A stretch of DNA of 60,558 nt from IMG/VR virus record IMGVR_UViG_3300025808_000004, positions 1-60,558 of that record, one strand, 5' to 3'. Of this stretch, positions 22,498-53,456 are shown piece by piece (within the stretch, counting starts at the first letter, position 1; every line of letters starts with the position of its first letter). A program made the translations under genes and the position numbers. The notes beneath the pieces are model-generated. The model saw only the letters and a list, made by a program, of their open reading frames with translations, was not told the origin of the DNA and ran no database searches. Origin of the DNA: a virus (lineage: Duplodnaviria; Caudoviricetes).

Positions 22498-23025
22498 TCA
22501 CCCCTGATCCAGGAGGCGACGTTGGAGTAGAAGTACACCGGCAATCAGACCGGGTTCCCATTGCCCCACTGGGTAGGTGATGCTGAGGCGGTCGTCGTCT
22601 GTTTCTGCCGCCACGACCAGAGCACGAATTTTGCCCTGCTCTGCCAGCGTGATGAATGGAGCAAACTCGCCCAGAGCGTATTCCCGCAGTTCTTTCTGCG
22701 TGGACCCGCCGGCATTCGGCTTAGGCCTATAGCTTTCGAGAATAACCAGGCTGCTGTCTTTAAGCTCGGTGCGCACCGTTCGTGCTTCGGTCTGCTGTAT
22801 CGATCCAGGGGACTGTTGAAGCGCCTGAGCTTCGAGCATTTTGGTCAGCACGTCAAGATCTTCTTGCTGGATTTGGACCATGGCATGATTGTCCTTGCCA
22901 ATGCCAACAATGGCTTCGAGAGGGCGTGGAGTGCGAGACACAGGTGCCTGCTGCAGCCTTGCGCCCCTCAGGAGGACCGCAAGAGCTTGTTCAGGGGTAA
23001 TATCAGGCAAGGGGGTCAAAGCCAA
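22498..23025 (-). CDS. hypothetical protein
   Basis: Overlaps the end of terS; GGAGGA RBS before TTG starts. Confidence 0.6.
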   Translation of the reverse strand: MALTPLPDITPEQALAVLLRGARLQQAPVSRTPRPLEAIVGIGKDNHAMVQIQQEDLDVLTKMLEAQALQQSPGSIQQTEARTVRTELKDSSLVILESYRPKPNAGGSTQKELREYALGEFAPFITLAEQGKIRALVVAAETDDDRLSITYPVGQWEPGLIAGVLLLQRRLLDQG

Positions 23026-24019
23026 GGTCCTCCAGCTCTTCAGGGGTCAAGTCGTTCACGCCGCGCATGCTATACTCCCTGCCATTCGGCCCGGATTGCA
23101 TCAGCTGGGGATGAGACAACGGCCGGCGGTTCGCGCCCTTGCCCTGCTCCTTGTTCTCCATCTGCCACTTCAGCAGGTCAGCGGTCTTGCGCTCCAGCTC
23201 GGGGTCCTGGGCCTCAGCCTTCTCGCGAATTTTCCGTTCCATGATGGCCCGAACTGAGGAACTGCCGGTGCGCTTTTCCAGCCCGCTGACCGGGTCAACC
23301 TCATTCGGAGGCATCTCTGAGGGATACACGGGTGTGCCCTCGAGTGTCTTCCCATCGGCATTGTCCCGGAACCGTGCGGCCCAGTCGTCAGCGCTGAGGT
23401 TAGCTTGGTCGCTCTGGGGAATGGCTAGCACACCACCAGTGACGTGCGCCTCGATCCGCATATTCTCGCGGAACTTCTCGGGCCGGCGGGCCTTCAGCAG
23501 AACCTCCAGCAGGCGATCACTGTAGCGCCGGACAGTGAGCGGGATGGGCCGGTTGTTCTCATCCAGCTCAAGTTCGCCAGTTTTAGCATCGCGCACGAAG
23601 GCCTGAATGCCCTTATGAACGATCGGCTCCTCATATCCAGCCACAGCACGCCGTTGTGCTTCCTGCTCCAGATAATCATTGCCAATCTCCAATGCCGCAT
23701 CCCAAGCTTCATGGAACTCTGCGACCAAGAGAACCCCGTCATCATCAAGGCCACCCATGTCAATGGTGTATCCAGGATACCCGTCCTCACTACGGCGCTT
23801 CCAGTAATACATGAGCCAAGGCGTGACACCACAGCGACGGGCGGTCTCGGAGACATTGGCGCAATCTGCAAATTCTGCTATCACCTGTTCCAGCAGAGCC
23901 TTGGACCGTTTCTGGTTGTGTTTGGACTGGTCCGAGTTCTTGGGATAAGCAGGGCGGTGCATTGCCATTTTGGGGCGCCTGTGGTTTTGGATTGGTTTTA
24001 AGCCATTTAGCCTTATCAT
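23003..24019 (-). CDS. terS: terminase small subunit with long C-terminal extension
   Basis: N-terminal HTH (NVSETARRCGVTP..MYYWKRR), EA.RRAV.G.EEP, YSDRLL..LLKARRPEKFRE; ends FDPLA; start uncertain. Confidence 0.8.
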   Translation of the reverse strand: MIRLNGLKPIQNHRRPKMAMHRPAYPKNSDQSKHNQKRSKALLEQVIAEFADCANVSETARRCGVTPWLMYYWKRRSEDGYPGYTIDMGGLDDDGVLLVAEFHEAWDAALEIGNDYLEQEAQRRAVAGYEEPIVHKGIQAFVRDAKTGELELDENNRPIPLTVRRYSDRLLEVLLKARRPEKFRENMRIEAHVTGGVLAIPQSDQANLSADDWAARFRDNADGKTLEGTPVYPSEMPPNEVDPVSGLEKRTGSSSVRAIMERKIREKAEAQDPELERKTADLLKWQMENKEQGKGANRRPLSHPQLMQSGPNGREYSMRGVNDLTPEELEDLGFDPLA

Positions 24020-24173
24020 GTTGTAGGCGTATACCAGCGTTGGCTGTTAAGAGGTTCGCCTTATTGCAAGAGTAGAACCGAATTTTTGGTCCCATGACTT
24101 TTTTCCAATATTTTTGGAGACTCTCCATATGTAAACCCTGCTGGGTTTCAATCCTGTCCTAATCCCAAATTGC

Positions 24174-24357
24174 CAAATTATTCATCGTTGTGGAGGCCCG
24201 TTCTCGGGTTTTCAAATTATTCATCGTTGTGCAAGAACAGGCTTGGGAGGAGGGTCCCGTTCTCGGGTTTTCAAATTATTCATCGTTGTGCAAGAACAGG
24301 CTTGGGGGGCCCCGTTCTTGGGTTTTCAAATTATTCATCGTTGTGCAAGAACAGGCC
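24174..24357. repeat. direct-repeat array at the late/early divergence (candidate packaging/terminus site)
   Basis: CAAATTATTCATCGTTGTG at 24174, 24213, 24272 and 24327; three ~50-bp units CCCGTTCTYGGGTTTTCAAATTATTCATCGTTGTGCAAGAACAGGC. Confidence 0.9.
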
Positions 24358-24421
24358 TGGGGGCCCTATATACAGTGCCTAGGGGCCCCCTATCCCCACT
24401 ATATATATGAGAAAAATTCGT

Positions 24422-24450
24422 TTTACATTTCAATAATGACAGGTCATAAT
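24422..24450 (+). promoter_or_regulatory. sigma70-type early promoter
   Basis: TTTACA-17-CATAAT with an AT-rich upstream region. Confidence 0.75.
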
Positions 24451-27107: not shown

Positions 27108-27605
27108 ATGTCCACTCTGAATGAGATGACCATCAAGGAACTGATCACCAAATACAACGAGTTGGTGCCTGACGCTGCTGCCCACATCATGAAGTGGCAT
27201 GGCCGCAAGGATCTGCTGATCGAGAAGGTCGCCGGCATGATCCAGGCGACCAGGGGCACGCTGACCATCAAGTCGGTCTCTGATGCCCTGCTGACGACCA
27301 TCGACTACATTGACGAGGCTGGCAAGCCGATCGGGTTCACCTACGACTATGTGCTGGCGAAGGTGCTTGAGACCTTCCCCGACGCCAACACCACGGTCAA
27401 GTGCTTGCGCTGGTATAACACCAAGCTGAACAGCGACCCGAACGTGAAGATGCCGGTGCGCCCGCGGAAACGCACGGTTGAGGTCGAGGTTGACCAACTG
27501 GATCAAGCGCATATCATCGATGCCAAGCCGACGGCTGTGGACGACGATCACCCGACGTCTGACATGAAGGATGTGCCCGAAGCGGTTGCTGATCCGCTTC
27601 TGTGA
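27108..27605 (+). CDS. wHTH-like DNA-binding protein (FPDANTT family), ends DPLL
   Basis: AGGAG RBS; FPDANTTVKCLRWYNTKL. Confidence 0.75.
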   Translation: MSTLNEMTIKELITKYNELVPDAAAHIMKWHGRKDLLIEKVAGMIQATRGTLTIKSVSDALLTTIDYIDEAGKPIGFTYDYVLAKVLETFPDANTTVKCLRWYNTKLNSDPNVKMPVRPRKRTVEVEVDQLDQAHIIDAKPTAVDDDHPTSDMKDVPEAVADPLL

Positions 27606-27683: not shown

Positions 27684-28070
27684 ATGCCCTATTACAACAC
27701 TTTCTATCAGGGTCTTGATGACCTCTGCAAGGCACTATCCAACACTCCAAACCCTGACCCGAAGGGCACCCTTGGCCGATGCCTTAGACTCTACTTTCGC
27801 TCGCAGGAAGCTGCGAAGAAATTCGGGTTCATTGGCGTAGGTTGCATTACCTTCGCTGAGGCGCGTCTGGTCGAGTTTCAACGCCGAGCACTTGGCTTGA
27901 AGCATCGGATCGGTGACCGAGTGACAGTCCGACAATTTTGGGGCATCTATGAAGCCGAGATTGTGGGCTATGGTTCTGAGCACAACGGAGCAAAAGCCAT
28001 TCCGGTCTATGACCTGAAAACCCCAACGGGCGACCTGCGCTGGGCCTACAAGGATCAGATCGATGCATGA
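27684..28070 (+). CDS. hypothetical protein (SH3-like C-terminus)
   Basis: AAGGAG RBS; IGDRVTV...AEIVG...VYDL...RWAY.DQI. Confidence 0.65.
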   Translation: MPYYNTFYQGLDDLCKALSNTPNPDPKGTLGRCLRLYFRSQEAAKKFGFIGVGCITFAEARLVEFQRRALGLKHRIGDRVTVRQFWGIYEAEIVGYGSEHNGAKAIPVYDLKTPTGDLRWAYKDQIDA

Positions 28071-28226
28071 CTCCTATACCAAGTATGCGTGTGGGATCAT
28101 CACTAACACAGGGCCTTCTTGGTCCTGTGTACCTACGCCCTGGTCCCGGTTCACGGACCTGTGCGTCCTCGTAGCCAGCTACTTACTGCTGGCCCTCAAG
28201 CTTTATCTCATCTGGAGGACTCTAAC

Positions 28227-28460
28227 ATGATGACTGGACTTATGCCAATCCCGCCCAAAACCCTCGCTCAGCTGGCTGAGCGAGCCAAAAAGCTTGATGG
28301 CTGTGTGCACTTGGAAAACAGCCAAATCTACGAATTTCCAATCAGCACCAACATAGTGGCCGTGGTCATCAACCCCGGCAGTCCATCCGGACATCAAGGC
28401 AAGGACGTTCGTCGCAATGCTGAGCTTCGCCAAATCCTAGCTGAAGGAACCCAAAAATGA
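28227..28460 (+). CDS. hypothetical protein
   Basis: GGAGG RBS before ATG 28227; ATGA overlap with the next gene. Confidence 0.55.
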   Translation: MMTGLMPIPPKTLAQLAERAKKLDGCVHLENSQIYEFPISTNIVAVVINPGSPSGHQGKDVRRNAELRQILAEGTQK

Positions 28461-28780: not shown

Positions 28781-28967
28781 TAACCATACGGTTCAACCTG
28801 CCTATGATGATCCGCGTCTACCGGTGGTGCCGTAAATGCCATTCACCGCGCATACAGGCCATTAAACTGGCTTGGGGCTTCCAAAACTGGGGCTGAGCCT
28901 TCTCTTTGCTTTCCAGTCAGGTTCTAACCCGGTAGACGTTCACTAGAAGCGCTGAATAGACTACTAG

Positions 28968-30062: not shown

Positions 30063-30063
30063 C

Positions 30064-31612: not shown

Positions 31613-32017
31613 ATGCTTCTTAACAAACCACAGATCGGGGCCTCTTTCAGGCCCGAGTCCAAGGCCACGACGCCACACCTCCAAGCGATCAGGGTCGCAT
31701 TGACCTCGGCTCCAGGGGAGCCCGGGCAGTGGACTCTCGTTTGGTATATACGCCCAAAGACTGACCGGCCCGGTGCCAAAGGATCCGGGCACCGGCAATA
31801 CGGCGGACGGAAATGGTATTCCGACCAAGACGATGCCATCGAGCAGGTTCAGGTTCTCATTGCCTCCAGGGCTGCTTTGAAGGGTTGTGTCTTGGAGGTC
31901 GAAGACGAAGGTTATTATGACGAGAACAATGACTGGGTTGTTCCGGTCCGTCAACTGGCTCAACAGGACGACGCTCAACAGACCAGTCAGTTGCAAAACG
32001 GTGATCCACTGGAATAA
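31613..32017 (+). CDS. hypothetical protein, ends DPLE
   Basis: AAGGA RBS; 134 aa. Confidence 0.6.
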   Translation: MLLNKPQIGASFRPESKATTPHLQAIRVALTSAPGEPGQWTLVWYIRPKTDRPGAKGSGHRQYGGRKWYSDQDDAIEQVQVLIASRAALKGCVLEVEDEGYYDENNDWVVPVRQLAQQDDAQQTSQLQNGDPLE

Positions 32018-32667: not shown

Positions 32668-35049
32668 TCAAGCTAACGGATCGGCGTCTCGTTTTAGCAG
32701 GTCTCCAACGGTCTCAGCCTGACCTACCTTAGCTTTCTGTGTCTTCTTCATAGAACCACGGTTCTGTGGACCTCGGTGCCGATCAGGTAAGTGCACAACC
32801 GCTGCCGATGTGTCGTTTACAGCATCGGCCACATGATCCTCCTCAAAGTCTGACCCGAGAGCAGCCTCTTCAGCGGCAACCATAGCCGCGGCACTCATCT
32901 CACGGTTATAGATCAAGGCTCGGAACTTGGGCTCACGAACCTCTTCACGTGCCCTTAGAGCTTGAAGCGCAGCAAGCCCGTTCTTGTAGTCCTTCTCAGG
33001 TCCGCCTAGGGCCCATAGAACCACCCTACCTTTATTGGTATGGCACTGGTTCTTGGTATTATAGGCTGGAACTGAGTTGTTCAGGAACTTGCGAGCATGC
33101 CCTCTCATATTTCGTGTCTGCAGTTTCTCCGGCAGGGCATCAACCAAGTCTTGCTCAGAGACATAATGGCCATGGAACGGAGGCAACTGGCTCATATAGA
33201 GATGCATCCACTTTGCGTCATGGTCAGTCCGTGATGCCTCCCTCATCTCGTTCTTCGAGTCACTGGTCGGTGCTCGGCCTTTACCGTTGAACCTCCCAAT
33301 GTCTCGTTCCAGCAGCCAGGCCCAGATTGCGGCATCCCCGCCTTCCTTCTCAGCCCAGTTGAATAGTCTCTGGTAATAGGCCTCGCCTTTAGGGAAAGCA
33401 TCTGAGATGATAATCATATACCGTCGGTCATCGTCCTCAACAGGCAAGGCGTCGTCATGGTTGGTGAAAGCCACAATCACAGCATTGTTGGTGATCTTTT
33501 GAGCGGGCTGATATTTTTCATTGATCTCAATTAACGGGTCTGTAATCATTGGCTTGAGGTGGTTCATCAAGTCAACACGACCCTTTGCCATAAGCTCCTC
33601 AATCACGACTAGTTTGACATTTCGTGCCCAACCGTTGAACTGCGATTGGACAGAGGCGTTCATCGGTCGACCGGTATTGTGTGGCCCAAAAATGCGCTCC
33701 AAGACCTGGCCAATGAATGATTTACCCGTACCTTGCTTGCCTTTAATGACCATAGCGAAGTTGGGCTTTTGTGCCGGGTTCTGAACACACCATGCTATAT
33801 AGTCAAGCACAAGCTTGCGCTCGTGCTTGCTCTCGAACATATATTCCATGTGCTCTTCAAAGATCGTTACGTCACCTTTTACAGGCTTCAGGTCACTGGG
33901 CCGCCAAGTATTGTAAATGTCTCCACAGAACTCAGGCTGCTCAGGCAGGAAATCCATTTTGTCGAACTTCCGCATGGATCGCTTTGCCGCGAAGATTTCA
34001 GTGGAGATACTTCCGTTCTTCTCCAGCATGTAGTTGAACATGCTATCGAAGGACTTGGTATCAAACATCATCCCGTCGCGGCGCCGATGGAACATCTTCG
34101 CCTGGGCAATCCATACCCATTCGTCCATGATACCAGAGTAGCGCGCCTCTTGTTCACCTTGGATGGAGGCTGGGCCATATTCCCCAGCGTCATCTGGCAT
34201 ATCAGGGTCACCAAAGTCGTGCTCAGGGGTATCACCACCAGGTGGCACCACCGAGGCATAATTGAAGGCGTTCTCAACTAGTTTGGCAAGTTCCTCTGTC
34301 GACCAAGGTGGCTGGCATCGGTCATTCCAATGCTCGAGCATCAGCTCATGGGTTTTCTCCTGAGAGATGCCCCGCTCACGAAGCACACAAGCCAGATTGA
34401 AGGTGAGGCGGTTACCACCGCTCCCTTCAATGGCTATTTTCGCGTCATGCTTGAGGTGTAAAACAGCCCATTTGATGTATTGCGGCTGGTCCTGGTCGAC
34501 GACCGCCGCCTGTTGGTGCTCACGATCTTCACGGCGACCTGTAAGATGGCCAAGCCACTCAGGAAGTTTCGCAACAGGGATTTGGCTGCTTTCTTCCCAG
34601 CTATACTTGCCTACATCTGTTTGAGACCCAGGCGCCAAAACATATCCGCCAGCACCGCCAGTAGCACGAGTATCAATGCCCGGCCCAATTTGCTCGACAG
34701 TAGTTCGGGCTTGACCCACAAAATACAAATGGCGCCCACCAGAAGGTGTGACAGCAGAAAGGGTAGCGGGAAGTTGGCCATAGTCAAGCTCCAATGCGTC
34801 GAGTATGGCTTGGCCATTCTTGCCCTTCTTTATGTCCACATCGACGACACAAAGACCAGACGGCCTGCATGCCAGCCCAATATTATCTTCAGGCCAGGCT
34901 TTCCACCACCCCTTGATAACCTTTTCGTCAGTGGTGGCAGCTGTGCCCCACTTTACCCTTGGTTTGTTCGTGGTTCCCTTAGAGATAGGAAATACATGCC
35001 AGCCACGGCTAGCATAAGACAAAGCGAGGGAAACCTTGGATTGACCCAT
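32668..35049 (-). CDS. bifunctional primase-polymerase / SF3 (DUF5906-type) helicase
   Basis: Prim-Pol motifs GWHVFP, NIGLAC, VVDVD, TPSGGRHLYF, GYVLAPGS; PriCT-like WNDRC.PPW; Walker A GKQGTGKS, EEL, DDRRY; ends DPLA. Confidence 0.9.
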   Translation of the reverse strand: MGQSKVSLALSYASRGWHVFPISKGTTNKPRVKWGTAATTDEKVIKGWWKAWPEDNIGLACRPSGLCVVDVDIKKGKNGQAILDALELDYGQLPATLSAVTPSGGRHLYFVGQARTTVEQIGPGIDTRATGGAGGYVLAPGSQTDVGKYSWEESSQIPVAKLPEWLGHLTGRREDREHQQAAVVDQDQPQYIKWAVLHLKHDAKIAIEGSGGNRLTFNLACVLRERGISQEKTHELMLEHWNDRCQPPWSTEELAKLVENAFNYASVVPPGGDTPEHDFGDPDMPDDAGEYGPASIQGEQEARYSGIMDEWVWIAQAKMFHRRRDGMMFDTKSFDSMFNYMLEKNGSISTEIFAAKRSMRKFDKMDFLPEQPEFCGDIYNTWRPSDLKPVKGDVTIFEEHMEYMFESKHERKLVLDYIAWCVQNPAQKPNFAMVIKGKQGTGKSFIGQVLERIFGPHNTGRPMNASVQSQFNGWARNVKLVVIEELMAKGRVDLMNHLKPMITDPLIEINEKYQPAQKITNNAVIVAFTNHDDALPVEDDDRRYMIIISDAFPKGEAYYQRLFNWAEKEGGDAAIWAWLLERDIGRFNGKGRAPTSDSKNEMREASRTDHDAKWMHLYMSQLPPFHGHYVSEQDLVDALPEKLQTRNMRGHARKFLNNSVPAYNTKNQCHTNKGRVVLWALGGPEKDYKNGLAALQALRAREEVREPKFRALIYNREMSAAAMVAAEEAALGSDFEEDHVADAVNDTSAAVVHLPDRHRGPQNRGSMKKTQKAKVGQAETVGDLLKRDADPLA

Positions 35050-35281: not shown

Positions 35282-35860
35282 ATGACGAAAACTATTGACG
35301 AGCAGCTGGAGCGGCTCGCCTCAGCCCAGGAGCGAACAGCAACGACGCTTGAGGGCATTCTTGAAGCGGTTGTGAACTTCAAGTTCGAACAAATCGGGAG
35401 CATCGCCATTGCTGGCGTTCAATTGCCGGGGAGCGCCAATGCCGAAGCCGACAACGGACTTGCCACCGAAGAAGCCACGGTCGAAGAAGCACAGGTTGAG
35501 ATCGTCGAAGAAGCAGAAACTGAAGAACAGCAACCTGAGTCCGAACCCGAGCCCGAACCCGAGTCCGATGTGGAAGATGAACTGAGCGGCGAGGCGGAAG
35601 CTGAAGCAAGTGATGCACCTGACGATGAAGGGGACCCCCTCGGTGATGGTGACGCGGCTGTCGATGAGCCAGTCCTTCCTATCAAGCTTACCAACGACAC
35701 ACTCCGGGGGTTCGCACGGGACTTGATGGAAAAGGAGGGCAAAGCTGCTGTGTTCGAAGTGCTGGCGGAAGTTGGCAAGGGCTACAAGGCTGTGGGCGAA
35801 GTGCCGAAGGACGACTTGAAGGAAGCCCATCTGAAGATGGCAGCACGCCTGAAGGGCTGA
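35282..35860 (+). CDS. acidic replication-module protein (type usually found with DUF2800/DUF2815)
   Basis: GAGGAG RBS; helical N-terminus, very acidic linker, C-terminal LT...LR......GK.AV..VL...G...V.EVP domain. Confidence 0.65.
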   Translation: MTKTIDEQLERLASAQERTATTLEGILEAVVNFKFEQIGSIAIAGVQLPGSANAEADNGLATEEATVEEAQVEIVEEAETEEQQPESEPEPEPESDVEDELSGEAEAEASDAPDDEGDPLGDGDAAVDEPVLPIKLTNDTLRGFARDLMEKEGKAAVFEVLAEVGKGYKAVGEVPKDDLKEAHLKMAARLKG

Positions 35861-39162: not shown

Positions 39163-40524
39163 ATGGCCCAGCACGCTAGACTTTCTGCTTCTGGCTCAAA
39201 GCAATGGATGAACTGTCCTGGTTCCGTTGCTACAGAAGCACGCAACCCAAATCCGCGCAGCTCATCTGTCTTCGCAATGGAAGGCACGGCCGCACACTTG
39301 CTTTGTGAACTCTATGCCAGCGAGGGCCTTGCACCTGAGGAGTTCCTTGGCGAGACCATTTATATTTGGCAGGATGATGCCTATTTGGAACGCCATCTGG
39401 CACAGGCGGTGGCTGAAAAGGGCGTTACTCTAGCTGATGTCCCGGTCGCCATGGAATTCCTGGTAGATCAAGACATGGTGGACGCCATTGAATACTTTGT
39501 CGCGGCCGTGGAGACAACGCGTTCCCGGCTTGACCCAAAAGGGCGTGAAGAGTATTCCGAGAAATGGCTTGATCTGACATGGCTTCACCCTCTGCTCGGC
39601 GGCACGGGTGACTATATCAGCGTGGAGGCATTCGGCTGGGCTGAGTTGATCGATTATAAGCATGGCCGGGGCGTTCTGGTAGAAGTTCGCGACAACAGCC
39701 AGCTCAAGCTCTATGGCATCGGGGTTCTAAACATGTTCCCTGACTGCGAGGGCGTTCGTATGACGATCGTCCAACCCCGCAAGGAGCACGAAGACGGGCC
39801 AATCCGCTCCATCGAATATACCCGTGAAGAGTTGATGGATTTTGCCGAGGAGGTTCGTGTCGCTGCAGAAGCTACCCAGCTTCAGAACGCTACCCTCTGT
39901 GCCGGTGAATGGTGCACCTTCTGTGGCGCTAAAGCCTATGTGGATGAGAATGGCGACTTCTATGAGTGCCCGGCTCTTATCAAAGCCATGCAAGAGGAAG
40001 CCCAGATGGACTTTGCTGGCGTGCCTCCGGAGATCGGCATCCCCATTCCGACCACAAACGCCGGACTTGCCCGTGCATCTAAATGGCTCGGGGTCTTCGA
40101 CAACTATGTGAAGGCCGTGGAAGGGGCTGTCCAGCGCGAACTGCTTGCCGGTCGTCCTGTCGAAGGCTATAAGCTTGTCCGCAAGAAAGCTAACAGAGCG
40201 TTTGGGGCCTTTATCGAGGAAGTCGATGAGCTAACGGGCACTGACGACAACCACTGGATGGCCATGTCTGAGGACGACGTGATCGCCATCGTGGAAAGCG
40301 AGCTTGGCGAGGAGTATGTGGCCAAGTGCTATCAACCCCCGAAACTCAGGTCTCCAGCACAGTTCGAAAAGCTGGGTCGTGAGTTTAAGAAACTGACAGG
40401 CGAGATTGCCTATAAGCCAGAGGGCGGTTTGACAGTTACGAATGAGGCAGACACGCGACCGGCCGTCGAAGTCACACAGGCTGGCGGTTCAGACTTCCCT
40501 GATGACCTTTCGAACGGAAATTGA
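39163..40524 (+). CDS. DUF2800 PD-(D/E)XK (Cas4-like) exonuclease
   Basis: HARLSAS...W.NCPGS, A.EGTAAH, GTGD, IDYKHGRG, QLKLY, IVQPR, WC.FC. Confidence 0.9.
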   Translation: MAQHARLSASGSKQWMNCPGSVATEARNPNPRSSSVFAMEGTAAHLLCELYASEGLAPEEFLGETIYIWQDDAYLERHLAQAVAEKGVTLADVPVAMEFLVDQDMVDAIEYFVAAVETTRSRLDPKGREEYSEKWLDLTWLHPLLGGTGDYISVEAFGWAELIDYKHGRGVLVEVRDNSQLKLYGIGVLNMFPDCEGVRMTIVQPRKEHEDGPIRSIEYTREELMDFAEEVRVAAEATQLQNATLCAGEWCTFCGAKAYVDENGDFYECPALIKAMQEEAQMDFAGVPPEIGIPIPTTNAGLARASKWLGVFDNYVKAVEGAVQRELLAGRPVEGYKLVRKKANRAFGAFIEEVDELTGTDDNHWMAMSEDDVIAIVESELGEEYVAKCYQPPKLRSPAQFEKLGREFKKLTGEIAYKPEGGLTVTNEADTRPAVEVTQAGGSDFPDDLSNGN

Positions 40525-41221: not shown

Positions 41222-41803
41222 ATGGCTGAACGTTTGAAATGTGTCACACCTCCGTTCCGTGTGAGTTTCCCGGCAATTTTCGAGGCTTCGTCCTATCAGG
41301 GCGGCACCTCGAAGTATTCCGTGGTCATGCTCTTCTACCCGGCGAAGTTCACGGACGCCGACAAGAAGGCCTGGAAGACCATGCAGGTCATTGCCGACGC
41401 AGCTTCCAAGGACAAGTTCAAGAAGCTGATCAAGGATCTGCCTGCAAACTTCAAGAAGCCCATCCGGGACGGCGTCGAGAAGGAGCACCTGGACGGCTAT
41501 GGCGATGGCTGCATGTTCGCCACCGCTTCCTCGAAGCAACGGCCGGGCCTCGTCGATCGCAACAAGCAGCCCATCCTGACCGAGGAAGAGTTCTACCCTG
41601 GCTGCTGGGCTCGCGCGACCGTCACCGCCTATCCCTATGACAACGTAGGTAAGGGCGTGGCATTCGGTCTGCACAACCTCCAGAAGCTCGGCGACGACGA
41701 GAACTTCACCGGCCGGATGGCTGCTGAGGACGACTTCGGTGATGACGCCGACGACGTGTGGAGCGGTTCTGACATCGCCCCCGAAGACGATCCGACGGCG
41801 TAA
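41222..41803 (+). CDS. single-stranded DNA-binding protein (DUF2815, T7 gp2.5-like)
   Basis: RVSFP.IFE, KYSV, PIRDG, FYPGCWARA, KGVAFGLHNLQK; acidic tail ending DDPTA. Confidence 0.9.
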   Translation: MAERLKCVTPPFRVSFPAIFEASSYQGGTSKYSVVMLFYPAKFTDADKKAWKTMQVIADAASKDKFKKLIKDLPANFKKPIRDGVEKEHLDGYGDGCMFATASSKQRPGLVDRNKQPILTEEEFYPGCWARATVTAYPYDNVGKGVAFGLHNLQKLGDDENFTGRMAAEDDFGDDADDVWSGSDIAPEDDPTA

Positions 41804-42664: not shown

Positions 42665-42681
42665 ATTCTGCCGGGGGCCCC

Positions 42682-44943
42682 ATGATAGTAGGTGATTTTG
42701 AGACACGCTCTGCTTGTGATCTGAAGAAAGCAGGCGCATGGGCATATTCGACACATCCCACAACGGAAGTCATGTGTTTCTGCTGGAACTTCCAAGAAGA
42801 CCCTATTGAGCAGGTCTATGAGTGGCAAGCTGGGTTCCCGCATCTCGGCATTGACCAGTCACCATTTCCCCAAGAGCTGGCAGACCGCATTGCTGCCGGA
42901 GAAATTCTTGAAGCCCACAATGCTTTCTTTGAATATTGTATTTGGAACCACGTCTGGTGCAAAATGCTTCCGGGCCTGCCAGAGCTATCACTTAATCAGA
43001 TCCGATGCTCTGCAGCTAAAGCGGCGACATTTGCCTTGCCTCGTGCTCTTGACAAAGCCATTGCGGCATTAGGCCTTCCTCAAAAGAAGGATATGGAGGG
43101 CTCGGCTAATATGCTGAAGCTTGCCAAGCCCCGCAAGCTGACTGCAGACGAAAAGCGACATTTCGAAGCACAGGGTGTTGACCCTGGGACTGTGATACTC
43201 TTCCTGGAAAACCGGGAGATGATACTTCGCAACACTAAGTATTGTGCTCAGGACGTCCGGGCTGAACGTGGGCTATCCTCTGTTCTACGAGAATTGCCAC
43301 CCCGTGAGCTTGAGTTTTGGCAGATGGACCTTCGCATGAATGCCCGGGGCATTACGTGCGACATGGCCTTGGTGCATATAGCAATCAAGCTTGCCGAAGA
43401 GGACACAGACCACCAGAATGCCGAGTTGAAAGAACTTACGGACGGCATGGTCGAGAAAGCCTCTGGCCGTATGAAGTTCAAACAGTGGATGCATGACAAT
43501 GGTGTCAAAATCCCGAATACCCAGGGGGCAGTCATTGACATCCTTCTAGGACATGACCCTGGAGATGAAGAAGCCACAGCCGAGCTTAGGGCTGAACTTC
43601 GTGGTCTTGCCGAAACCATTACACCAAAAACACGGCGCGCCCTTGAAATTGTGCGGGACGTCAACCGATCGTCCGTCGCCAAATACAAGCAGATGATTAT
43701 CCAAGTTTCTGAAGGCAATCGCCTCAGGGACATGATGCTCTATTGCGGAGCTGCACGAACTGGCCGTTGGTCAGGCAAGGGTGTCCAGCCACACAACTTC
43801 ATCCGTGGGTATTCAGAGATTATGCAGGAGGTCTGCCAAGACATCCTTAAAGCTGATCCCGAAAGACTGCGCCTGCTCTACAACGGGTCTGTCCTCGAGG
43901 TGCTATCCAAAGCTACTCGTGGGGCTATGGTTGCGGCATACGGCAAAAAGCTGATGGTAGCTGACTTCGCGGCCATTGAAGCTCGGGTGCTTCTGTGGCT
44001 TGCGCTAGCTATGTCTGCCCTTGACATCTTCTATCGCGGCGAGGACATTTACTTGGACATGGCTTCTGCCATTTTCAAGTATCCATGCACCAATAAGGAC
44101 GACTTCCCATTCGAGCGTAAAGTTGGCAAGGCTGCAATTCTCGGTCTCGGCTATCAGATGGGCTGGGAGAAGTTTGAAGATGAGTGCCGCAATAAGAACG
44201 GGATCACCGACCAAGAACCTGAGTTTTTCAAAGACGTTGTTCGGGTCTATCGTGAAGAACGCTTTCCAGAAATAAAGTCCTTCTGGTATGACTTTGAGGT
44301 AGCTGCCATTAAAGCCGTAAGGCAGTATGACCCAAAAACCATGTCTAAGGGGCCGCGTATTGAATGCCGTCGCCTAGCTTGGTTTATGTGGGGTCAGTTC
44401 CTCCATATGGAATTGCCATCCGGTCGGTTACTCGCCTATTTTAGGCCGCTAATCAAGGTAAGGAAAACTTATCGGTTTCCGGCGCTTAACGAGCGAGGGC
44501 ATGAATGCACTGCAATGGCCACTGGCGGAGCAGACCTAACAGAGACTCAAGCCCGTAGGCTTGCAATAGCCAGGGCAAAAATTGCCAACAAAAAACTCAT
44601 ACCGAATGGCAAGGTTCAGCTATTTAAGAGTGAAGTCCTCACCTTCATGCATGAAAACTCCGTCACTCGTCAGTGGGAACGGAAAGAGACATACGGCGGA
44701 GAGCTGGTTGAAAACGCCACACAAGCAACAGCGCGTGACTTGATGGCCGAGGCGATGTTGCGGGTTGACAACCATCCAGACTATGATTTATTGTTGTCTG
44801 TGCACGATGAAGAGATTGCCGAATGTGACGAGGGCAAAGGCAATCTCGAAGAGTTTGAGGCTCTTATGGAAGAACTACCTAGCTGGGCTGAAGGCTGTCC
44901 AGTTAACGCTGAAGGCTGGGAAGGTTATAGATACAGGAAGTAG
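42682..44943 (+). CDS. family A DNA polymerase with 3'-5' exonuclease
   Basis: DFETRS, AHNAFFE, YCAQDV, TGRWSG, motif A DFAAIEARVL, motif B RKVGKAAILGLGY, ENATQA, motif C VHDE; start at ATG 42682. Confidence 0.95.
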   Translation: MIVGDFETRSACDLKKAGAWAYSTHPTTEVMCFCWNFQEDPIEQVYEWQAGFPHLGIDQSPFPQELADRIAAGEILEAHNAFFEYCIWNHVWCKMLPGLPELSLNQIRCSAAKAATFALPRALDKAIAALGLPQKKDMEGSANMLKLAKPRKLTADEKRHFEAQGVDPGTVILFLENREMILRNTKYCAQDVRAERGLSSVLRELPPRELEFWQMDLRMNARGITCDMALVHIAIKLAEEDTDHQNAELKELTDGMVEKASGRMKFKQWMHDNGVKIPNTQGAVIDILLGHDPGDEEATAELRAELRGLAETITPKTRRALEIVRDVNRSSVAKYKQMIIQVSEGNRLRDMMLYCGAARTGRWSGKGVQPHNFIRGYSEIMQEVCQDILKADPERLRLLYNGSVLEVLSKATRGAMVAAYGKKLMVADFAAIEARVLLWLALAMSALDIFYRGEDIYLDMASAIFKYPCTNKDDFPFERKVGKAAILGLGYQMGWEKFEDECRNKNGITDQEPEFFKDVVRVYREERFPEIKSFWYDFEVAAIKAVRQYDPKTMSKGPRIECRRLAWFMWGQFLHMELPSGRLLAYFRPLIKVRKTYRFPALNERGHECTAMATGGADLTETQARRLAIARAKIANKKLIPNGKVQLFKSEVLTFMHENSVTRQWERKETYGGELVENATQATARDLMAEAMLRVDNHPDYDLLLSVHDEEIAECDEGKGNLEEFEALMEELPSWAEGCPVNAEGWEGYRYRK

Positions 44944-44998
44944 GGTATACTTTCTAGCTATAGAAGTGCAAAACTGGCCACATGGATTATACGATAGC

Positions 44999-46504
44999 AT
45001 GACCGTAAACTACCTCAAATCCTCTATAGCCCATTGGCCGGAAGTTGATCCGTCAAAGCCTCGCTGGACTCACCAGCTCGAGGAATTGGAGGAGTATGGT
45101 CTTGACAAAGCTCGTGGGCTATTGTGGGGAATGCGGACCGGCAAGAGCAGGATCATTGTCGACAGTGCCAATGCTCTTCGAGATGGCGGCAAAATCCGTG
45201 GCGGGCTTATCTTTGCCCCTAATGGCGTTCACCTCAACTGGGTGCTGAAGCAAATCCCATTTTATTCGTGGCCTGGCATGTCTTGGAGCGCACAGCACTG
45301 GAGTTCTGACTTTGCGCGGGAACATCCGAGTTCTTGGTCGGAGAGGTTCTGTGCTCTGCTCAAGTCAAATGCAGACATGCGCTGGTTTACTGTCAATTCG
45401 GAAAGTCTCATTATGCCAGCAGTCAAGAAAGCCATCAACCAGTTCCTTGACTCTGTCAATGGTGAAGTGATAGCCATTGCTGATGAGAGTGTGGACTTTC
45501 GCACTCCGGGCTCAAAGCGCACCAACGTTGCTAGAGCCTATTTCAAGCGCCTGCCATTCCGCCGTATTCTTGATGGCACTGCGCTAATGAACAGCCCCCT
45601 GCACGCGTTCAGTCAATTTGAACTGTTGGAACCTGGGGCTTTGGGTTTCCGTAAATATGAGGATTTTAAGCAATACCACTCTGTGTGGCGGAGCGTGAGG
45701 AACAAAGCGGGGCGCTATTATCCAAAGTTGGACCACTACACAAATCTGGAGACCCTTCGTGAAAACATCGGAGATTATGCCAGTGTAGTTCTTCGTGAGG
45801 ACTGTGACATGCCCGACCTTCTGCCGATTGAGGTGGTGGTGGAGATGTCCGAGCTTCAAAAGAGGGCATACCTTACCCTCATTGAGAAAAACCTGCTTGA
45901 GTTTGAGAACGGAGCTGAAATTGATGCCATTGAAGGTGGCAAGCGGGCAATAAAGTTCCATCAAATTGTATCAGGCTTTGCCATCGATGACTTTGGGGAC
46001 ATTCAGTCTATAGATGATGATCCACCTATCCTACAAGAGCTCAGGAGGCAGGTAGTTGACACCCCCAAATATATCGTCTGGTGCCGCTTTAGAGAGGATA
46101 TTCGCCGCGTTTCCAACGCTCTCCGGGCCATGGGCCACAAGATTGTGGAATACCATGGAGGAGTGCCACAAGGCTTGCGGGCTGGATACGTCGACCAGTT
46201 CAATAATGATGACGCTACAGTTGGCCTTGTCGGGCAGCCACAAGCTGGTGGCCGAGGACTTGAATTGCCCTGTGACGCTATCATCTGGTATTCAAGCACT
46301 TATGACGCTATTATCCGCAACCAAGCAAACGAGCGTGGAACCATCATGGGCGGCCGATCCGTTTCCATCATCACACTCGCTACGCCGGGCACTGTTCACG
46401 ACGACATTATCGCTTCCGCAGAGCAGAAAGTCTGCATTGGTGACTGGGTGGCCGGTTCTGGTTTACGTGATAGCTTAATGCGCTGGAAAAGTAACTTATC
46501 ATGA
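44999..46504 (+). CDS. SNF2-like SF2 DNA helicase
   Basis: GMRTGKS, IADES, ILDGT, QAGGRGLEL, QANER; start probably ATG 44999. Confidence 0.85.
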   Translation: MTVNYLKSSIAHWPEVDPSKPRWTHQLEELEEYGLDKARGLLWGMRTGKSRIIVDSANALRDGGKIRGGLIFAPNGVHLNWVLKQIPFYSWPGMSWSAQHWSSDFAREHPSSWSERFCALLKSNADMRWFTVNSESLIMPAVKKAINQFLDSVNGEVIAIADESVDFRTPGSKRTNVARAYFKRLPFRRILDGTALMNSPLHAFSQFELLEPGALGFRKYEDFKQYHSVWRSVRNKAGRYYPKLDHYTNLETLRENIGDYASVVLREDCDMPDLLPIEVVVEMSELQKRAYLTLIEKNLLEFENGAEIDAIEGGKRAIKFHQIVSGFAIDDFGDIQSIDDDPPILQELRRQVVDTPKYIVWCRFREDIRRVSNALRAMGHKIVEYHGGVPQGLRAGYVDQFNNDDATVGLVGQPQAGGRGLELPCDAIIWYSSTYDAIIRNQANERGTIMGGRSVSIITLATPGTVHDDIIASAEQKVCIGDWVAGSGLRDSLMRWKSNLS

Positions 46505-46705: not shown

Positions 46706-47167
46706 ATGAAATCGATCCTGTCCCCGATTGTGGACATCCTGCCACTGATTAATTTTGCTGCCCCCGATACCACTTCTGGTGCCGCCGCTGGTGGGAAACC
46801 GACGGCAAAGCCGACCGATGCACCGGCAGCCATTGCCAAGCCTGCTGGAGCCAAGCCTGCCGAAAAGGCTGAACCGAAGCGTGGCATCGGCACTGCGGCA
46901 ATGGAAGCAATCTTGAACTCGGCCACCAACGAGGAGGCTCTGGCGGCCGTCCGCAAGGAGTTCCCGGACGCCAACACCACGAAGGCGTCGATCAACTGGT
47001 ATCGGAACAAGTTGCGCAAGGATGGCACGATCAGTACCGGCGGCATCTACAAGGGCAAGCCCGTTCCGAACGCGCGCGAGATGGCCAAGGACGCCAAGCC
47101 GGCCGAGGCACCCAAGGCGAAGGACACCAAACCCACCGCAGCTGCTGGCGATGATCCGACCGCCTGA
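46706..47167 (+). CDS. AKP-rich (histone-like) wHTH DNA-binding protein (FPDANTT family), ends DDPTA
   Basis: GAGGAG RBS; EFPDANTTKASINWYRNKLRKDG flanked by Ala/Lys/Pro repeats. Confidence 0.75.
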   Translation: MKSILSPIVDILPLINFAAPDTTSGAAAGGKPTAKPTDAPAAIAKPAGAKPAEKAEPKRGIGTAAMEAILNSATNEEALAAVRKEFPDANTTKASINWYRNKLRKDGTISTGGIYKGKPVPNAREMAKDAKPAEAPKAKDTKPTAAAGDDPTA

Positions 47168-47310: not shown

Positions 47311-48363
47311 ATGTCTGCAGGAATTGAGATGAATGGCGTCTTCTATCAGAACGTCTACTATATGCCAATGGCCCACGGCATTGGTGCAGACAGCCAAGGT
47401 CGTTATGAAATCAAAGACCCACCAAACTGCGGTTGGTCTCGGGCTTTGGTCATTTGGCCTGACGATGATGACGAGCCTGTTACTGGATCGCGTCGCAGGA
47501 AGAAAACCGCCAAGCGGGTGACCCTGTTCTGTCCGTATACCCTGGAGGCCTATCAGATCACCCCAGCAGCCCGTGAAGTGGCCCATCAAACAGCCTATCC
47601 ATTGACTGAGACTCTCATCTGCGAGCTGGAAAACATCATCAGCCGGAACTGGAAAATATATGCTGGCTTTGGGCACCAGAAAGCCTATGATGTTGCAGCA
47701 CTAGTTCTAACGAAGCTCGGGAAAGCCGTTCCCAACTACATGTCACCGGCATTGGAAAATCTCGAGTATACCGAGGACAATGTGCCCAATCGCCATGGTA
47801 AGCCGGTTGGAGAGGCCCTGCTCCGACCAATCAACCGGGACTCCAAGCGCGGACAGGTTGCGGCCTTCTTCCTGGAAAGCAACAGTGGGTCAATTCGCGA
47901 AGCAATGGCCAAGTTTGATATGTCCCGCTCGGGTGTGCTGACCCACCTCCACGGCCTCAACAAGGATCATGGCTTGGGCTATGTCCTTCAGGGCGACGTG
48001 GCCACCATCATGCTTCCGCCGGAGTGCACGGACCCTCTGGCCGACGAGACGGTTGTCCAAGTTCATACCCAAGCAGTCTCTGCCCAACGAGCAGGCAAAA
48101 CTTGCAAGCCCACTGTCACTGCTTTGCCTGCCAAAGGCAAGCGGCGCGAAGTGGCTCTGCTAATGCTCGAGGAAACAGCCATTGTAGACGTGGCCGAGAA
48201 GGTTGGCTGTTCAGTCAACTCTGTCAGGTCACACCTCCATGACCTGCATACAAAACACGGGTTCGGTTACGGGTTGTCTCCGGACAAGGCACGTGGTAAG
48301 CTGCTCGTGCCGGCTGGATGGACTGCCGACTATGATCCTGAAGACCTTGACCCGCTAGCCTGA
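47311..48363 (+). CDS. protein with two tandem C-terminal wHTH domains, ends DPLA
   Basis: Repeats KRGQVA...SRSGVLTHLHGLNKDHGLGY and KRREVA...SVNSVRSHLHDLHTKHGFGY; GGAG RBS. Confidence 0.7.
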   Translation: MSAGIEMNGVFYQNVYYMPMAHGIGADSQGRYEIKDPPNCGWSRALVIWPDDDDEPVTGSRRRKKTAKRVTLFCPYTLEAYQITPAAREVAHQTAYPLTETLICELENIISRNWKIYAGFGHQKAYDVAALVLTKLGKAVPNYMSPALENLEYTEDNVPNRHGKPVGEALLRPINRDSKRGQVAAFFLESNSGSIREAMAKFDMSRSGVLTHLHGLNKDHGLGYVLQGDVATIMLPPECTDPLADETVVQVHTQAVSAQRAGKTCKPTVTALPAKGKRREVALLMLEETAIVDVAEKVGCSVNSVRSHLHDLHTKHGFGYGLSPDKARGKLLVPAGWTADYDPEDLDPLA

Positions 48364-51377: not shown

Positions 51378-51378
51378 C

Positions 51379-51891
51379 ATGAACCTCATAATGGCGATCA
51401 GCCACAATGGCTATGTAGCGCGCTCTGCAAATGACGACATGTCCTGGACCGGGCCTGTCGACAAAGCGGTGTTCAAACTGCTGACAAGCACGCACCCGGT
51501 TCTTGCCGTTTCGGCTAAGACCTTGGAATATATGCCCAAATCGCTCCCCGGACGTGGCAAGCTCTATGCTTTGTCGACCGACCCACGCAAGGGAGTGAGC
51601 TTGGAAGACATGACCCGCTTCGCTCCAGACGCGTGGTTGCTGGGCGGGCAAGAGATTGCCCTTTATGCATTAAAGAATGGCTTTGTGGCAAAAGCCTATC
51701 TGTGCATTGCTGCAGATACAGACGTGGAGCCTGGGCCTGAGGCCATTCAGGATCGCTTGCGGCCCTACTTCGAAGGCCGGCGCTATGTCAAAGGACGTGG
51801 TTCCTGGTGGGATCAAACCCTGCGAGTGAAGATCGACAGTCTTCTGGTCGAAGTTTGGGAACGCGGGAGTGCCATACATGAGCTGGACTAA
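51379..51891 (+). CDS. dihydrofolate reductase-like protein
   Basis: LIMAISHNGYVA....MSW...DK.VFK.LT, KT...MP..LPGR, LLGG.EI. Confidence 0.8.
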   Translation: MNLIMAISHNGYVARSANDDMSWTGPVDKAVFKLLTSTHPVLAVSAKTLEYMPKSLPGRGKLYALSTDPRKGVSLEDMTRFAPDAWLLGGQEIALYALKNGFVAKAYLCIAADTDVEPGPEAIQDRLRPYFEGRRYVKGRGSWWDQTLRVKIDSLLVEVWERGSAIHELD

Positions 51892-52357
51892 AATAGGCGA
51901 AGCTTGGGCTTTCTTTGAAAAGGCTTTGGCCAGTAATACCAAAGAATGTATTCTCTGGCCGTTTTCACTTCAGCCTACTGGTTATGCTCGTATGAAACGG
52001 CATGGAAAATCCATGTTTGTGCACAGGGCTATTTGTATTGCAGTGCACGGGCCTTGTCCGGAAAATCATGAGACTGCTCACTCTTGTGGAGTTAGGGCGT
52101 GTATAAACCCTAAGCACGTTTCTTGGAAAACAAAACTTAAAAATGCTCAAGATAAGAAGAGGCACGGCACTGATAACTCAGGTCAACGGAATGGACGAGC
52201 CAAGCTTACTTGGGAAATTGTTTCACAAATACGTGCTGCTAGAGGAAAAGAACGCCAAATTGATTTAGCCCACAAATTTGGAGTTAGTATAGGAGTGGTA
52301 TGTAAAATCCAACTTAATCAAATTTGGAAAGAACCCAGTCGTGACGAAAACAGCTGA
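51869..52357 (+). CDS. HNH homing endonuclease
   Basis: CILWP, VHR..C...HG, HSCG...CINPKH..W.T...N..D; C-terminal AKLT HTH; more AT-rich than its neighbours. Confidence 0.85.
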   Translation: MPYMSWTKIGEAWAFFEKALASNTKECILWPFSLQPTGYARMKRHGKSMFVHRAICIAVHGPCPENHETAHSCGVRACINPKHVSWKTKLKNAQDKKRHGTDNSGQRNGRAKLTWEIVSQIRAARGKERQIDLAHKFGVSIGVVCKIQLNQIWKEPSRDENS

Positions 52358-52802
52358 GTCCAATCTGTGGAACTCAATGCGGACAGCCCTGAAAATTTTC
52401 AGAGCTGACCTGCATTACACCCGCATTGAAAACTCCGTATCCGACGGGTTCCCGGACGTGGAAATGCAACTGCTGGTTGATGGAATATCCTATCATGCCA
52501 CAACAGAATTAAAGACAGCACACCGACCAGTACACTCCGAGACTCCGGTTTCTGTCAAGATCAGACCTGGGCAGATACCGTGGCTGAAGAAACGCTGGAA
52601 CGTCAGGGGTTCCGCCTGGCTGCTTCTTCAAGTAGGATCGGGTCATGAACTTGCACGTTATCTGATCCCCGGAAACTTAGCTGGAGAAGTAAGCGAAGGC
52701 CGAACTGAGAAGTGGCTGCTAGATCATTCGGTTTGCAAGCCAAAAGACCCACTTGGTCATATCGCTAGAATAGCATGCACTTGGAGGAGCCATGAAGCCT
52801 GA
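52341..52802 (+). CDS. VRR-NUC / Holliday-junction-resolvase-like PD-(D/E)XK nuclease
   Basis: ES.LW, RIENSV..GFPD, ELK, IRP.Q..W. Confidence 0.75.
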   Translation: MTKTAESNLWNSMRTALKIFRADLHYTRIENSVSDGFPDVEMQLLVDGISYHATTELKTAHRPVHSETPVSVKIRPGQIPWLKKRWNVRGSAWLLLQVGSGHELARYLIPGNLAGEVSEGRTEKWLLDHSVCKPKDPLGHIARIACTWRSHEA

Positions 52803-53130
52803 GCGCAATATAATACCTGGGCTTGGCAGATTTAGCCAATATACCATCGCCCTCTTAAGGCTAGTATATTTGGCTCCTGGCCTAAATCAGAGGGCTTATG
52901 CCCATAAAGCGTTGATGCTCCCGCTTATTGATGCTGAGTTGTTGGTATACAGTTCTAAAAGGACTGGCCAGACCAAGCTCACTCCTAAGGGCCACGCTTT
53001 TCTGCGCCAACACAAGCTAGACCACTTTGGCTTCGAGAAAAGGCACACCGAACAATACCCAACTCAGATGGCCAACAATGCCGCGCTGATGGAAGCAATG
53101 TCTAAGTTCACTGGGCATTATGAGTCATGA
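52792..53130 (+). CDS. hypothetical protein (wHTH-like, LT.KG motif)
   Basis: GGAGG RBS; LIDAELL...KLTPKG. Confidence 0.55.
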   Translation: MKPERNIIPGLGRFSQYTIALLRLVYLAPGLNQRAYAHKALMLPLIDAELLVYSSKRTGQTKLTPKGHAFLRQHKLDHFGFEKRHTEQYPTQMANNAALMEAMSKFTGHYES

Positions 53131-53456
53131 AGATCATAGCCACAATAGCTGGAGCAACTTTCCGTGAGGAAGGAACTGAAATCGTCACTAGCCTGAAACC
53201 AGGCCAACGGTATCGTCTTGAGCGCGAGCCCTCCAATCCACATGACTTGAATGCTGTTCAAATTTGGGTTGACAACTACGTCTATGGGCGACGCGATCCG
53301 AAATCTTATCATCTTGGTTATGTTCCGCGCAAGTGGTCCGGGACTGTCTCGGCGGCACTTGCCAACAACCGCATCCACGTGTGGGCCAAAAAGCCAGACG
53401 CACACTGGGGAACTATATTGATATTGTGGGTTGACATTTCATTTGATCCGCTGTAG
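53127..53456 (+). CDS. HIRAN domain protein, ends FDPL
   Basis: IAG..FR, L.PG....LEREP.NPHD.NAV, LGYVPR. Confidence 0.85.
   Translation: MKIIATIAGATFREEGTEIVTSLKPGQRYRLEREPSNPHDLNAVQIWVDNYVYGRRDPKSYHLGYVPRKWSGTVSAALANNRIHVWAKKPDAHWGTILILWVDISFDPL

Follow-up and report, generated by a model that had tools for sequence, protein, structure and literature searches.

A shared D-P-[L/T]-x tip at the C-termini of unrelated proteins in an RDJL3-like phage is likely a docking motif

In phage T7, the acidic C-terminal tails of gp2.5 (an SSB, a protein that binds single-stranded DNA) and of gp4 bind basic patches of the family-A DNA polymerase gp5, and loss of the tail lowers processivity and SSB displacement (available portions of PMC12593628, PMC12339929, and PMC10359462); the available portion of the paper on the Enc34 SSB gives the same account of T7-type SSB tails (PMC5686142). 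The two T7 tails end alike, gp2.5 in ...DEDGDF and gp4 in ...SNDTDF, and only two of the 20 T7 proteins examined end so. Here we describe shared tips in the window, a whole virus record of 60,558 bases (IMGVR_UViG_3300025808_000004) that is syntenic with Roseobacter phage RDJL3 (OK283305). Eight of its proteins carry a D-P tag at the C-terminus, usually as the closing four residues of a tail that is disordered; unrelated folds bear the tag where their variable linkers end, and three disordered linkers hold it internally. A shared docking code is likely, and we consider D-P-[L/T/M]-[A/x] to be probably a short linear docking motif, the version used by the RDJL3-like clade of the T7-type tails that attach replication proteins to a common partner.

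A sequence-only reading had listed eight DP endings with their codons, and all of these are present in the sequence at the genes that it named, as are the internal copies DDDFDPLA and EGDPLG that it placed in the 14616 and 35282 proteins (proteins without a functional name are referred to by the first coordinate of their gene; Table 1). The gene set was obtained with a codon-usage caller of open reading frames (ORFs) and curated by synteny with RDJL3, with four shadow ORFs removed (38835-38966, 41019-41174, 46031-46243, and 52265-52363, all on the minus strand) and five ORFs put in (18052-19065 on the minus strand; 37490-38560, 44765-46504, 51869-52357, and 52341-52802 on the plus strand), resulting in 78 proteins and 18,357 residues. 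The ending DP[LT]x occurs on seven of the 78 called proteins, with DPL closing the HIRAN protein. At the internal rate of DP[LT] (12 in 17,811 positions), 0.053 such endings would be expected (binomial P = 1.6e-13). The earlier figure of ~90 proteins is somewhat high, with no effect on the result. In no trial, whether of the 20,000 with random cuts or of the 20,000 in which the last 20 residues were shuffled, did more than two DP[LT]x endings arise. DP[LT]x closes none of the 567 non-gene ORFs with a length of 33 amino acids or more; the tag is therefore not a DNA-level repeat. The carrier genes lie on both strands. Two of the carriers, the 27108 and 46706 proteins, have a small domain in common, and the enrichment result is unchanged by this. 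The enrichment is real, and it is a property of the proteins rather than of the DNA.

The RDJL3-like clade was sampled through the window, RDJL3, and the viral contigs G001-G005, of which G002-G004 are 93-99% complete and G001 and G005 are partial. Within this clade the SSB carries the tag in 7/7 genomes (six DPTA, one DPLG), as does the 46706 protein (7/7, one of them DPMA); among 102 database homologues of the latter, 96 have a DP[LTM]x ending, and in an alignment of 47 sequences with linkers of varying length, D150 and P151 are invariant. All six primase-helicase orthologues end in [AG]DPLA, with a further related locus (L006) ending in DADPLE, while 7/7 orthologues of the 47299 protein end in LDPLA and the seven HIRAN proteins end in DPL (six) or DPF (one). 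Likewise, the small terminase subunit (TerS) ends in DPL[AR] in 5/5 orthologues, and the 27108 protein in ADPL[ALT] in 5/5 orthologues despite divergent linkers. Of 41 database homologues of TerS, 34 end in DPL[AR]; these comprise each homologue of 57% identity or higher, and the seven distant ones have neither the tag nor the C-terminal extension. When the clade tails are aligned from the right, positions -4 to -1 have mean column conservation values of 1.00, 1.00, 0.95, and 0.91, versus 0.50-0.78 for positions -20 to -6, and all four motif codons vary synonymously among orthologues (GAC/GAT, CCN, CTN/TTA, GCN). These comparisons show that the motif is under purifying selection at the protein level, as the earlier reading had supposed from codon differences within the window: orthologues keep the tag through synonymous changes and divergent linkers.

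Beyond the clade, no TerS tag was found in the six lineages with a detected homologue, the HIRAN proteins of four other lineages have no tag, and homologues of the 27108 protein have a basic ...[RQ]PRA... tail in 7/8 lineages, with the AMA1 homologue ending otherwise. The tag on TerS, on the HIRAN protein, on the 27108 protein, and at the C-terminus of the 47299 protein is thus specific to the RDJL3-like clade. As a separate observation, the basic tails outside the clade (loci L039-L049) are of the type ...[RQ]PRA[KT].../...PR[AT]KK... on 27108 homologues in seven lineages, and the same tail type occurs on the two-repeat 47299 homologues of V45iii, Donnerlittchen, Xp12, PaMx28, and PaMx74; in the RDJL3 clade, both proteins have switched to tips of the DPL kind.

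The tag sits on otherwise unrelated proteins. TerS matches the terminase small subunit family phrog_4044 (E 8e-29), the primase-helicase matches Pfam Prim-Pol (5.7e-41) and DUF5906 (D5-like; 2e-22), the HIRAN protein matches Pfam HIRAN (1.9e-12), and the 47299 protein matches phrog_11422 (5.8e-68), with HTH_28 under the Pfam cut-off. The SSB is assigned to Enc34_ssDNA-bd (PF10991, E 1.4e-42; phrog_112, E 2.5e-48) and not to PF00436, and its C-terminal tail is acidic (...AAEDDFGDDADDVWSGSDIAPEDDPTA). A monomer model of the SSB, built on a 15-row alignment, has a mean pLDDT (predicted local distance difference test score) of 65, with residues 171-179 and 188-198 below 50. In the proximal part of this tail, residues 171-182 (41702-41737) form a motif R-x-x-A-[EA]-[DE]-D-F, whose F182 is invariant in 15 aligned gp2.5-like SSBs; the tail thus seems to combine one universal motif with one lineage-specific variable tip downstream of it.

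The 46706 protein has a small helical domain (residues 61-129, modeled helices with pLDDT 85-90) with low-complexity linkers on either side. Foldseek comparison of its model with the PDB gave no matches at E <= 0.001, and a profile search of PDB sequences gave none at E <= 1; the weak top Foldseek matches are winged-helix/helix-turn-helix regulators, only a hint that the domain may bind DNA. The N-terminus of this protein (46706-46790) is hydrophobic and signal-peptide-like (MKSILSPIVDILPLINFAAP...), a feature that is kept in the close clade and not in short distant homologues. A secreted or membrane-bound 46706 protein would fit poorly with an SSB-like tip.

Table 1. Positions of the tags and of the genes discussed with them in the 60,558-base window
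Feature	Position	Strand	Gene and context
TerS DPLA tip	23006..23017	-	gene 23003-24019, ends ...LGFDPLA; close of ~110-amino-acid C-terminal extension
DPLL tip of 165-amino-acid protein	27591..27602	+	gene 27108-27605, ends ...AVADPLL
DPLE tip of 134-amino-acid protein	32003..32014	+	gene 31613-32017, ends ...NGDPLE
Primase-helicase DPLA tip	32671..32682	-	gene 32668-35049, ends ...RDADPLA
gp2.5-like SSB DPTA tip	41789..41800	+	gene 41192-41803, ends ...EDDPTA
DPTA tip of 153-amino-acid protein	47153..47164	+	gene 46706-47167, ends ...GDDPTA
DPLA tip of 354-amino-acid double helix-turn-helix protein	48349..48360	+	gene 47299/47311-48363, ends ...DLDPLA
HIRAN DPL tip	53445..53453	+	gene 53127-53456, ends ...SFDPL; no residue after L
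Internal DPLA	14952..14963	-	acidic disordered linker of head-module protein 14616-15299, DDDFDPLA
Internal DPLF, second copy in 14616 protein	15027-15038	-	window only
Internal DPLG	35633..35644	+	acidic linker of protein 35282-35860, adjoining primase gene, EGDPLG
Internal DPLA in 47299 protein	48031..48042	+	3' of first helix-turn-helix repeat; C[TD]DP[LM]x[DA] in 7/7 orthologues
DFPDDL, possible second tail motif	40492..40509	+	four residues before end of Cas4-like exonuclease 39100-40524
Family-A DNA polymerase, untagged candidate reader	42679..44943	+	Pfam DNA_pol_A
SF2 helicase, untagged possible second candidate reader	44993..46504	+	Helicase_C, phrog_62

The internal copies are conserved as well. 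The 14616 protein has [DEGF]DPLA[ET]GP in 5/5 orthologues within an indel-rich acidic linker, and the 35282 protein has DPLG[DN]G in 6/6 orthologues while the rest of its linker is variable. The 47299 protein consists of two helix-turn-helix repeats with DP[LM]x after each in 7/7 orthologues, and the one-repeat homologue of RcSimone-Hastad stops near the point of the internal copy, in ...TDPFAAGQ. A second tail word may also be in use: the DFPDDL of the exonuclease is present in 6/6 clade orthologues, and in RDJL Phi 1 (L039) the extreme C-termini of the primase (27725-30172) and of gp39 (23706-24041) are EFPDDL and DFPDDL, respectively. Exonuclease tails of other lineages likewise hold a D-F motif in an acidic tail.

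A second line of evidence comes from phages outside the clade. Ten were compared: RDJL Phi 1, PaMx28, and AMA1 as complete records, six as regions of 35-41 kb, and Brevundimonas phage Leszy as a 40.5-kb region. The 46706 and 47299 homologues are each found in 75 phage records, with the same organism breakdown, which include Xiamenvirus, Mesyanzhinovviridae, Pamexvirus, and Steinhofvirus; for the gp2.5-like SSB, 572 records matched. Table 2 gives the tips of the RDJL3 clade and of the nine comparison phages that have a 46706 homologue; Leszy has none and was left out.

Table 2. C-terminal tips of three protein families in ten phage lineages
Lineage	SSB	46706 family	Primase
RDJL3 clade	DDPTA	DDPTA	DADPLA
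RcSimone-Hastad	TDPLA	ADPLA	FDPLA
RDJL Phi 1	EDPLD	NDPLD	EFPDDL
Tedan	DDIAF	ADPLED	QWTVE
V45iii	DADFFK	GQDFLK	KDAFD
Donnerlittchen	EASFLD	GQGFLD	RDAFD
PaMx28	EASFLD	GQGFLD	KDAFD
PaMx74	DASFLD	GQDFLE	KDALD
Xp12	GGSFLD	DKGIFE	KDALD
AMA1	GGDFE	GDQFE	KWLNP

Comparing the last four residues of the SSB and of the 46706-family protein within genomes, 25 of 40 positions are identical over the ten lineages; none of 20,000 permuted pairings reaches the observed BLOSUM sum, and P = 0.00025 for the identities. With two close relatives taken out (eight lineages), P is 0.0004 for the BLOSUM sum and 0.00135 for the identities. Judging from these sequences, the tips of the SSB and the 46706-family protein match within a phage and differ between lineages, and those of the primase-helicase follow more weakly. 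Because the tip of the SSB and that of the unrelated 46706-family protein match lineage by lineage, and about five different tips are seen, several coordinated changes would be needed. The change of tail tips in step between lineages is a new result: no description of the tag set or of lineage-coupled tips was found in the full-text articles searched (supplements and subscription journals lie outside this coverage), and the portion available of a comparative paper on Mesyanzhinovviridae (PMC11946847) does not describe the tag set or matching tips.

These patterns are best explained by a single reader pocket that probably binds all carriers and has changed as the tags did. Within the RDJL3-like clade, the tag would then have spread from an older core (SSB, 46706 protein, and primase-helicase) to TerS, the HIRAN protein, the 27108 protein, and the 47299 helix-turn-helix protein, so that one hub would gather replication, fork-repair, DNA-binding, and packaging-initiation proteins. 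By analogy with T7, the reader could be the phage family-A DNA polymerase, an identification that we offer tentatively. The polymerase is favored by elimination and association, since it is present in all ten other lineages, is never tagged, has a basic tip, and has its gene near the SSB gene. Its ...Y[RK]K tip is kept in 10/10 of these lineages (nine RY[RK]K, with MYRK in AMA1) and in 7/7 clade genomes, and in 10 of 11 distant loci its gene is adjacent or close to that of the gp2.5-like SSB. Because the window encodes an SSB and a polymerase of the T7 kind, DP[LT]A may be read as the clade's docking word for one reader. Co-folding of the polymerase (754 amino acids, 79-row alignment) with SSB residues 166-203 gave a score of 0.00 in a run without controls, and counts for neither side. 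The SF2 helicase may be a second candidate, and it has no acidic or hydrophobic tip in the nine lineages where the gene was called. A peptide-binding domain such as TPR or PDZ was not recognized by Pfam in the 50 of 78 window proteins that the scan covered.

Several observations concern these same genes. A triad of DUF2800/Cas4-like exonuclease, gp2.5-like SSB, and family-A polymerase (with ...RYRK or a near variant at its tip) is present in 10 of the 11 distant marine loci L011-L021, the exception (L019) being cut by the contig end. In the window, the longest ORFs of the polymerase and helicase begin at GTG/TTG codons far 5' of the likely ATG starts (42679 and ~44993, with upstream stretches 42547-42678 and 44765-44992), and 179 bases at the end of the polymerase gene are shared with the long helicase ORF.

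We would like to emphasize that a number of points weigh against a docking motif for one common reader. The linker before the tip of the 46706 protein is lysine-rich rather than acidic, and for this reason simple electrostatic docking on a basic patch fails for this protein. The HIRAN tag is off by one in register and directly follows a beta-strand with no linker, and the DPTA/DPLA tip, unlike that of T7, has no aromatic residue, with a threonine at -2 that is not hydrophobic. The 31613 protein is the weakest carrier: the sole homologue found (13878-14363 of G003, 42% identity) ends in EIDPLE, and RDJL3 5435-5878 has no detectable homology to it. The match of SSB and primase tips is weaker (15/40, P ~0.02-0.03), and that of the 46706 protein and primase tips has no significance (0.23 / 0.34). 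Tedan is a clear exception to the pairing (SSB DDIAF versus ADPLED), and Xp12 is a loose match (SFLD versus GIFE). It should be noted that the permutation test disregards shared descent and that several lineages are close relatives, so that independence is overstated, and that six comparison phages are represented by the 35-41 kb examined in each. Finally, carriers and readers may differ among phage groups, because in the marine viral loci L016-L019 an SNF2 helicase has an SSB-like tip.

The first of the rival explanations places the reader in the host, for instance in the replisome, repair, or chaperone machinery of Rhodobacterales, with the tag on each phage protein serving to hijack this host hub; we consider this explanation unlikely. 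It would fit the lack of a recognized peptide-binding domain in the scanned proteins, and also the host distribution, in that the sampled phages of alphaproteobacterial hosts mostly have a DPL core (the RDJL3 clade, RDJL Phi 1, RcSimone-Hastad, and the 46706 homologue of Tedan) and phages of beta- and gammaproteobacterial hosts have F-L-[DEK] or DFE tips. This host grouping, however, coincides with phage phylogeny and does not discriminate, and the last residue differs (A versus D) between RDJL3 and RDJL Phi 1, although one strain is host to both. Moreover, the phage has its own polymerase, primase-helicase, SSB, ligase, and helicase. Nor is the host-type SSB tip copied: among 30 SSB loci from 41 genomes of the class of G006 (taken as Alphaproteobacteria), 29 end in [DE][IV]PF, and not DP[LT]A, and one could not be parsed, so that mimicry of the host SSB tip is rejected.

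A second alternative, somewhat more doubtful again, is that the SSB itself is the reader, with the tip docking in the ssDNA-binding cleft of its gp2.5-like OB (oligonucleotide/oligosaccharide-binding) fold and with other proteins copying the tip to bind free SSB or to displace it from DNA. In the portions of the literature available, the C-termini of the Enc34 SSB lie in the concave sheet of neighboring subunits and bury 842 square angstroms (PMC5686142), and the T7 gp2.5 tail and ssDNA compete for one surface (PMC5686142, PMC10359462); such a reader would also account for the joint change of the SSB tip and the other tips. In the SSB model, however, the last 30 residues are mostly below pLDDT 50 and no tip is confidently docked, which is weak evidence given the 15-row alignment. 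A role as DNA mimic predicts acidic composition and not an invariant D-P, and the 46706 linker is basic.

The sequence-only reading had also entertained a proteolysis code, which is unlikely. On this view the tag would mark proteins as a C-terminal degron or a code for stability, and a ClpXP-, Lon-, or Tsp-type protease of the host or the phage would recognize it to time turnover; in this form we regard it as very improbable. The ssrA tag ends in -LAA, with a nonpolar extreme C-terminus, and acts only at a free C-terminus. Of the eight endings in the window, five close with -LA or -TA, loosely like the ssrA end, and the carriers come from different temporal modules, as timed turnover would suggest. 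The conserved internal copies in three proteins, however, cannot be C-terminal degrons, the invariant residues are D and P rather than the terminal ones, and the equivalent tips of sister lineages end in D, E, or K, all of which weakens this part of the earlier proposal. The last residue may be L, E, G, T, or R, and the bare HIRAN DPL is tolerated too (LL, LE, LG, LT, LR, LD, and L alone all occur), in contrast to an ssrA-like degron. In the part of the 78 proteins scanned, no protease was recognized except a scaffold-type head protein family, and a degradation tag on a stoichiometric SSB would seem counter-productive. Lastly, an origin by chance or from a DNA feature (repeat, terminator, or stop-codon context) has practically no probability left and is ruled out by the binomial P value, the untagged non-gene ORFs, the synonymous variation of codons among genes and orthologues around constant residues, and the presence of carriers on both strands.

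The window is divided into a minus-strand structural and packaging module (610-24019), which runs from GTA (gene transfer agent)-like tail genes to TerL and TerS, and a plus-strand module of early, replication, and nucleotide-metabolism genes. The annotated replication genes are the prim-pol/DUF5906 primase-helicase, gp2.5-like SSB, family-A polymerase, SF2 helicase, ATP-dependent ligase, DUF2800/PD-(D/E)XK (Cas4-like) exonuclease, and HIRAN. In its fullest form, which we hold with little confidence, the proposal is of a phage-encoded hub-and-tag wiring with a word reset per lineage, in which a single pocket would gather the SSB, primase-helicase, HIRAN protein, DNA-binding/regulatory proteins, and TerS, the 14616 and 35282 linkers would act as multivalent scaffolds, and replication, repair, and packaging initiation would be joined in one factory. 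Multivalent scaffolding by the internal tags of these two acidic linkers is speculation. On the structural side, a metagenome-assembled genome contig (L051, 52,759 bases, titled Aestuariivirga sp.) was the single match to a GTA-like tail protein in the genome-contig search (56% identity), and is probably a related phage or a prophage binned into that genome.

Other phages have tip sets of their own. Leszy (L050), a distantly related phage, has an independent [FW]DIL-type set on seven proteins: primase (...DEWDIL), exonuclease (...DAFDIL), SSB (...DEFQL), a GapR-like DNA-binding protein (...TAFDIL), and three small proteins (...DPFAIL, ...DDEFDI, and ...DPDDLF). Its only proteins in common with the window are the primase, exonuclease, SSB, polymerase, and helicase, together with ribonucleotide reductase, a tail protein, and a small protein of unknown function. 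In the marine viral loci L016-L019, the SSB (...SDDL or ...TDDL) and the SNF2 helicase encoded two genes upstream (...KEDL or ...GDDL) have the same tip. If the hub-and-tag wiring is true, tail-tip sharing would be a general, sequence-readable rule for phage interaction networks, as the Leszy [FW]DIL and ..DDL sets hint. Most phage proteins have no known partners, and shared tips of 3-5 residues that change in step would let replisome and packaging contacts be predicted from sequence. The tags would also provide experimental handles (peptide baits, tail swaps, and dominant-negative tails) in the cultivable pair RDJL3 and Roseobacter denitrificans.

Set beside known systems, the window resembles a sliding-clamp hub in that one short motif, often at the C-terminus, recurs on many unrelated proteins, which would compete for a single hub pocket. 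The T4 gp45 clamp reads the C-terminal tails of gp43, gp33, and gp55, the bacterial beta-clamp motifs are of the QL[SD]LF type, and clamp-binding or PIP-like motifs are of the Q-x-x-[LI]-x-x-[FL] type. The window tips, unlike the QL[SD]LF type, are without the Q or the aromatic pattern, and no clamp gene was recognized among the window proteins scanned (Pfam, PHROG). The likeness to the bacterial SSB C-terminus (DDDIPF-type), which mediates protein-protein contacts, is a conserved tip on a disordered SSB tail. The topology is reversed, however, with one carrier and many readers in bacteria and many carriers and presumably one reader in the window, and the window has the tip DDPTA on a PF10991 SSB rather than D-[DE]-[IV]-P-F on a PF00436 SSB.

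The earlier proposal that the tag acts like a docking motif, with gp2.5 as precedent, is apt by analogy, given that the SSB is gp2.5-like and that T7 gp2.5 and gp4 both end in DF. The differences from T7 are several. The window tips end in A, L, or E in place of the T7 Phe anchor, and their only hydrophobic position is the L at -2, for which the SSB and the 46706 protein have T. In T7, suppressors of a gp2.5 that lacks its terminal Phe are reported to map to gene 5 (cited in PMC12339929). The window carriers number seven or eight, including TerS, HIRAN, and helix-turn-helix-type proteins, together with internal copies, where T7 has two carriers, and one window carrier (46706) has a basic linker. 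The primase-helicase is prim-pol/D5-like and not a DnaG-DnaB fusion, and docking of the tails on the polymerase is putative in the window, suggested by association in that the polymerase is untagged and its gene is a neighbor of the SSB gene. What the window does have in common with T7 is an SSB of the gp2.5/Enc34 fold with a disordered acidic C-terminal tail, a family-A polymerase encoded nearby that is itself untagged, and a tip shared by SSB and primase-helicase (GDF and TDF in T7, DDPTA and DADPLA in the window, TDPLA and FDPLA in RcSimone-Hastad). This suggests that T7, with its two proteins, is one modest instance of a broader principle of wiring, which in the RDJL3 clade would extend to the small terminase and the HIRAN fork-binding protein.

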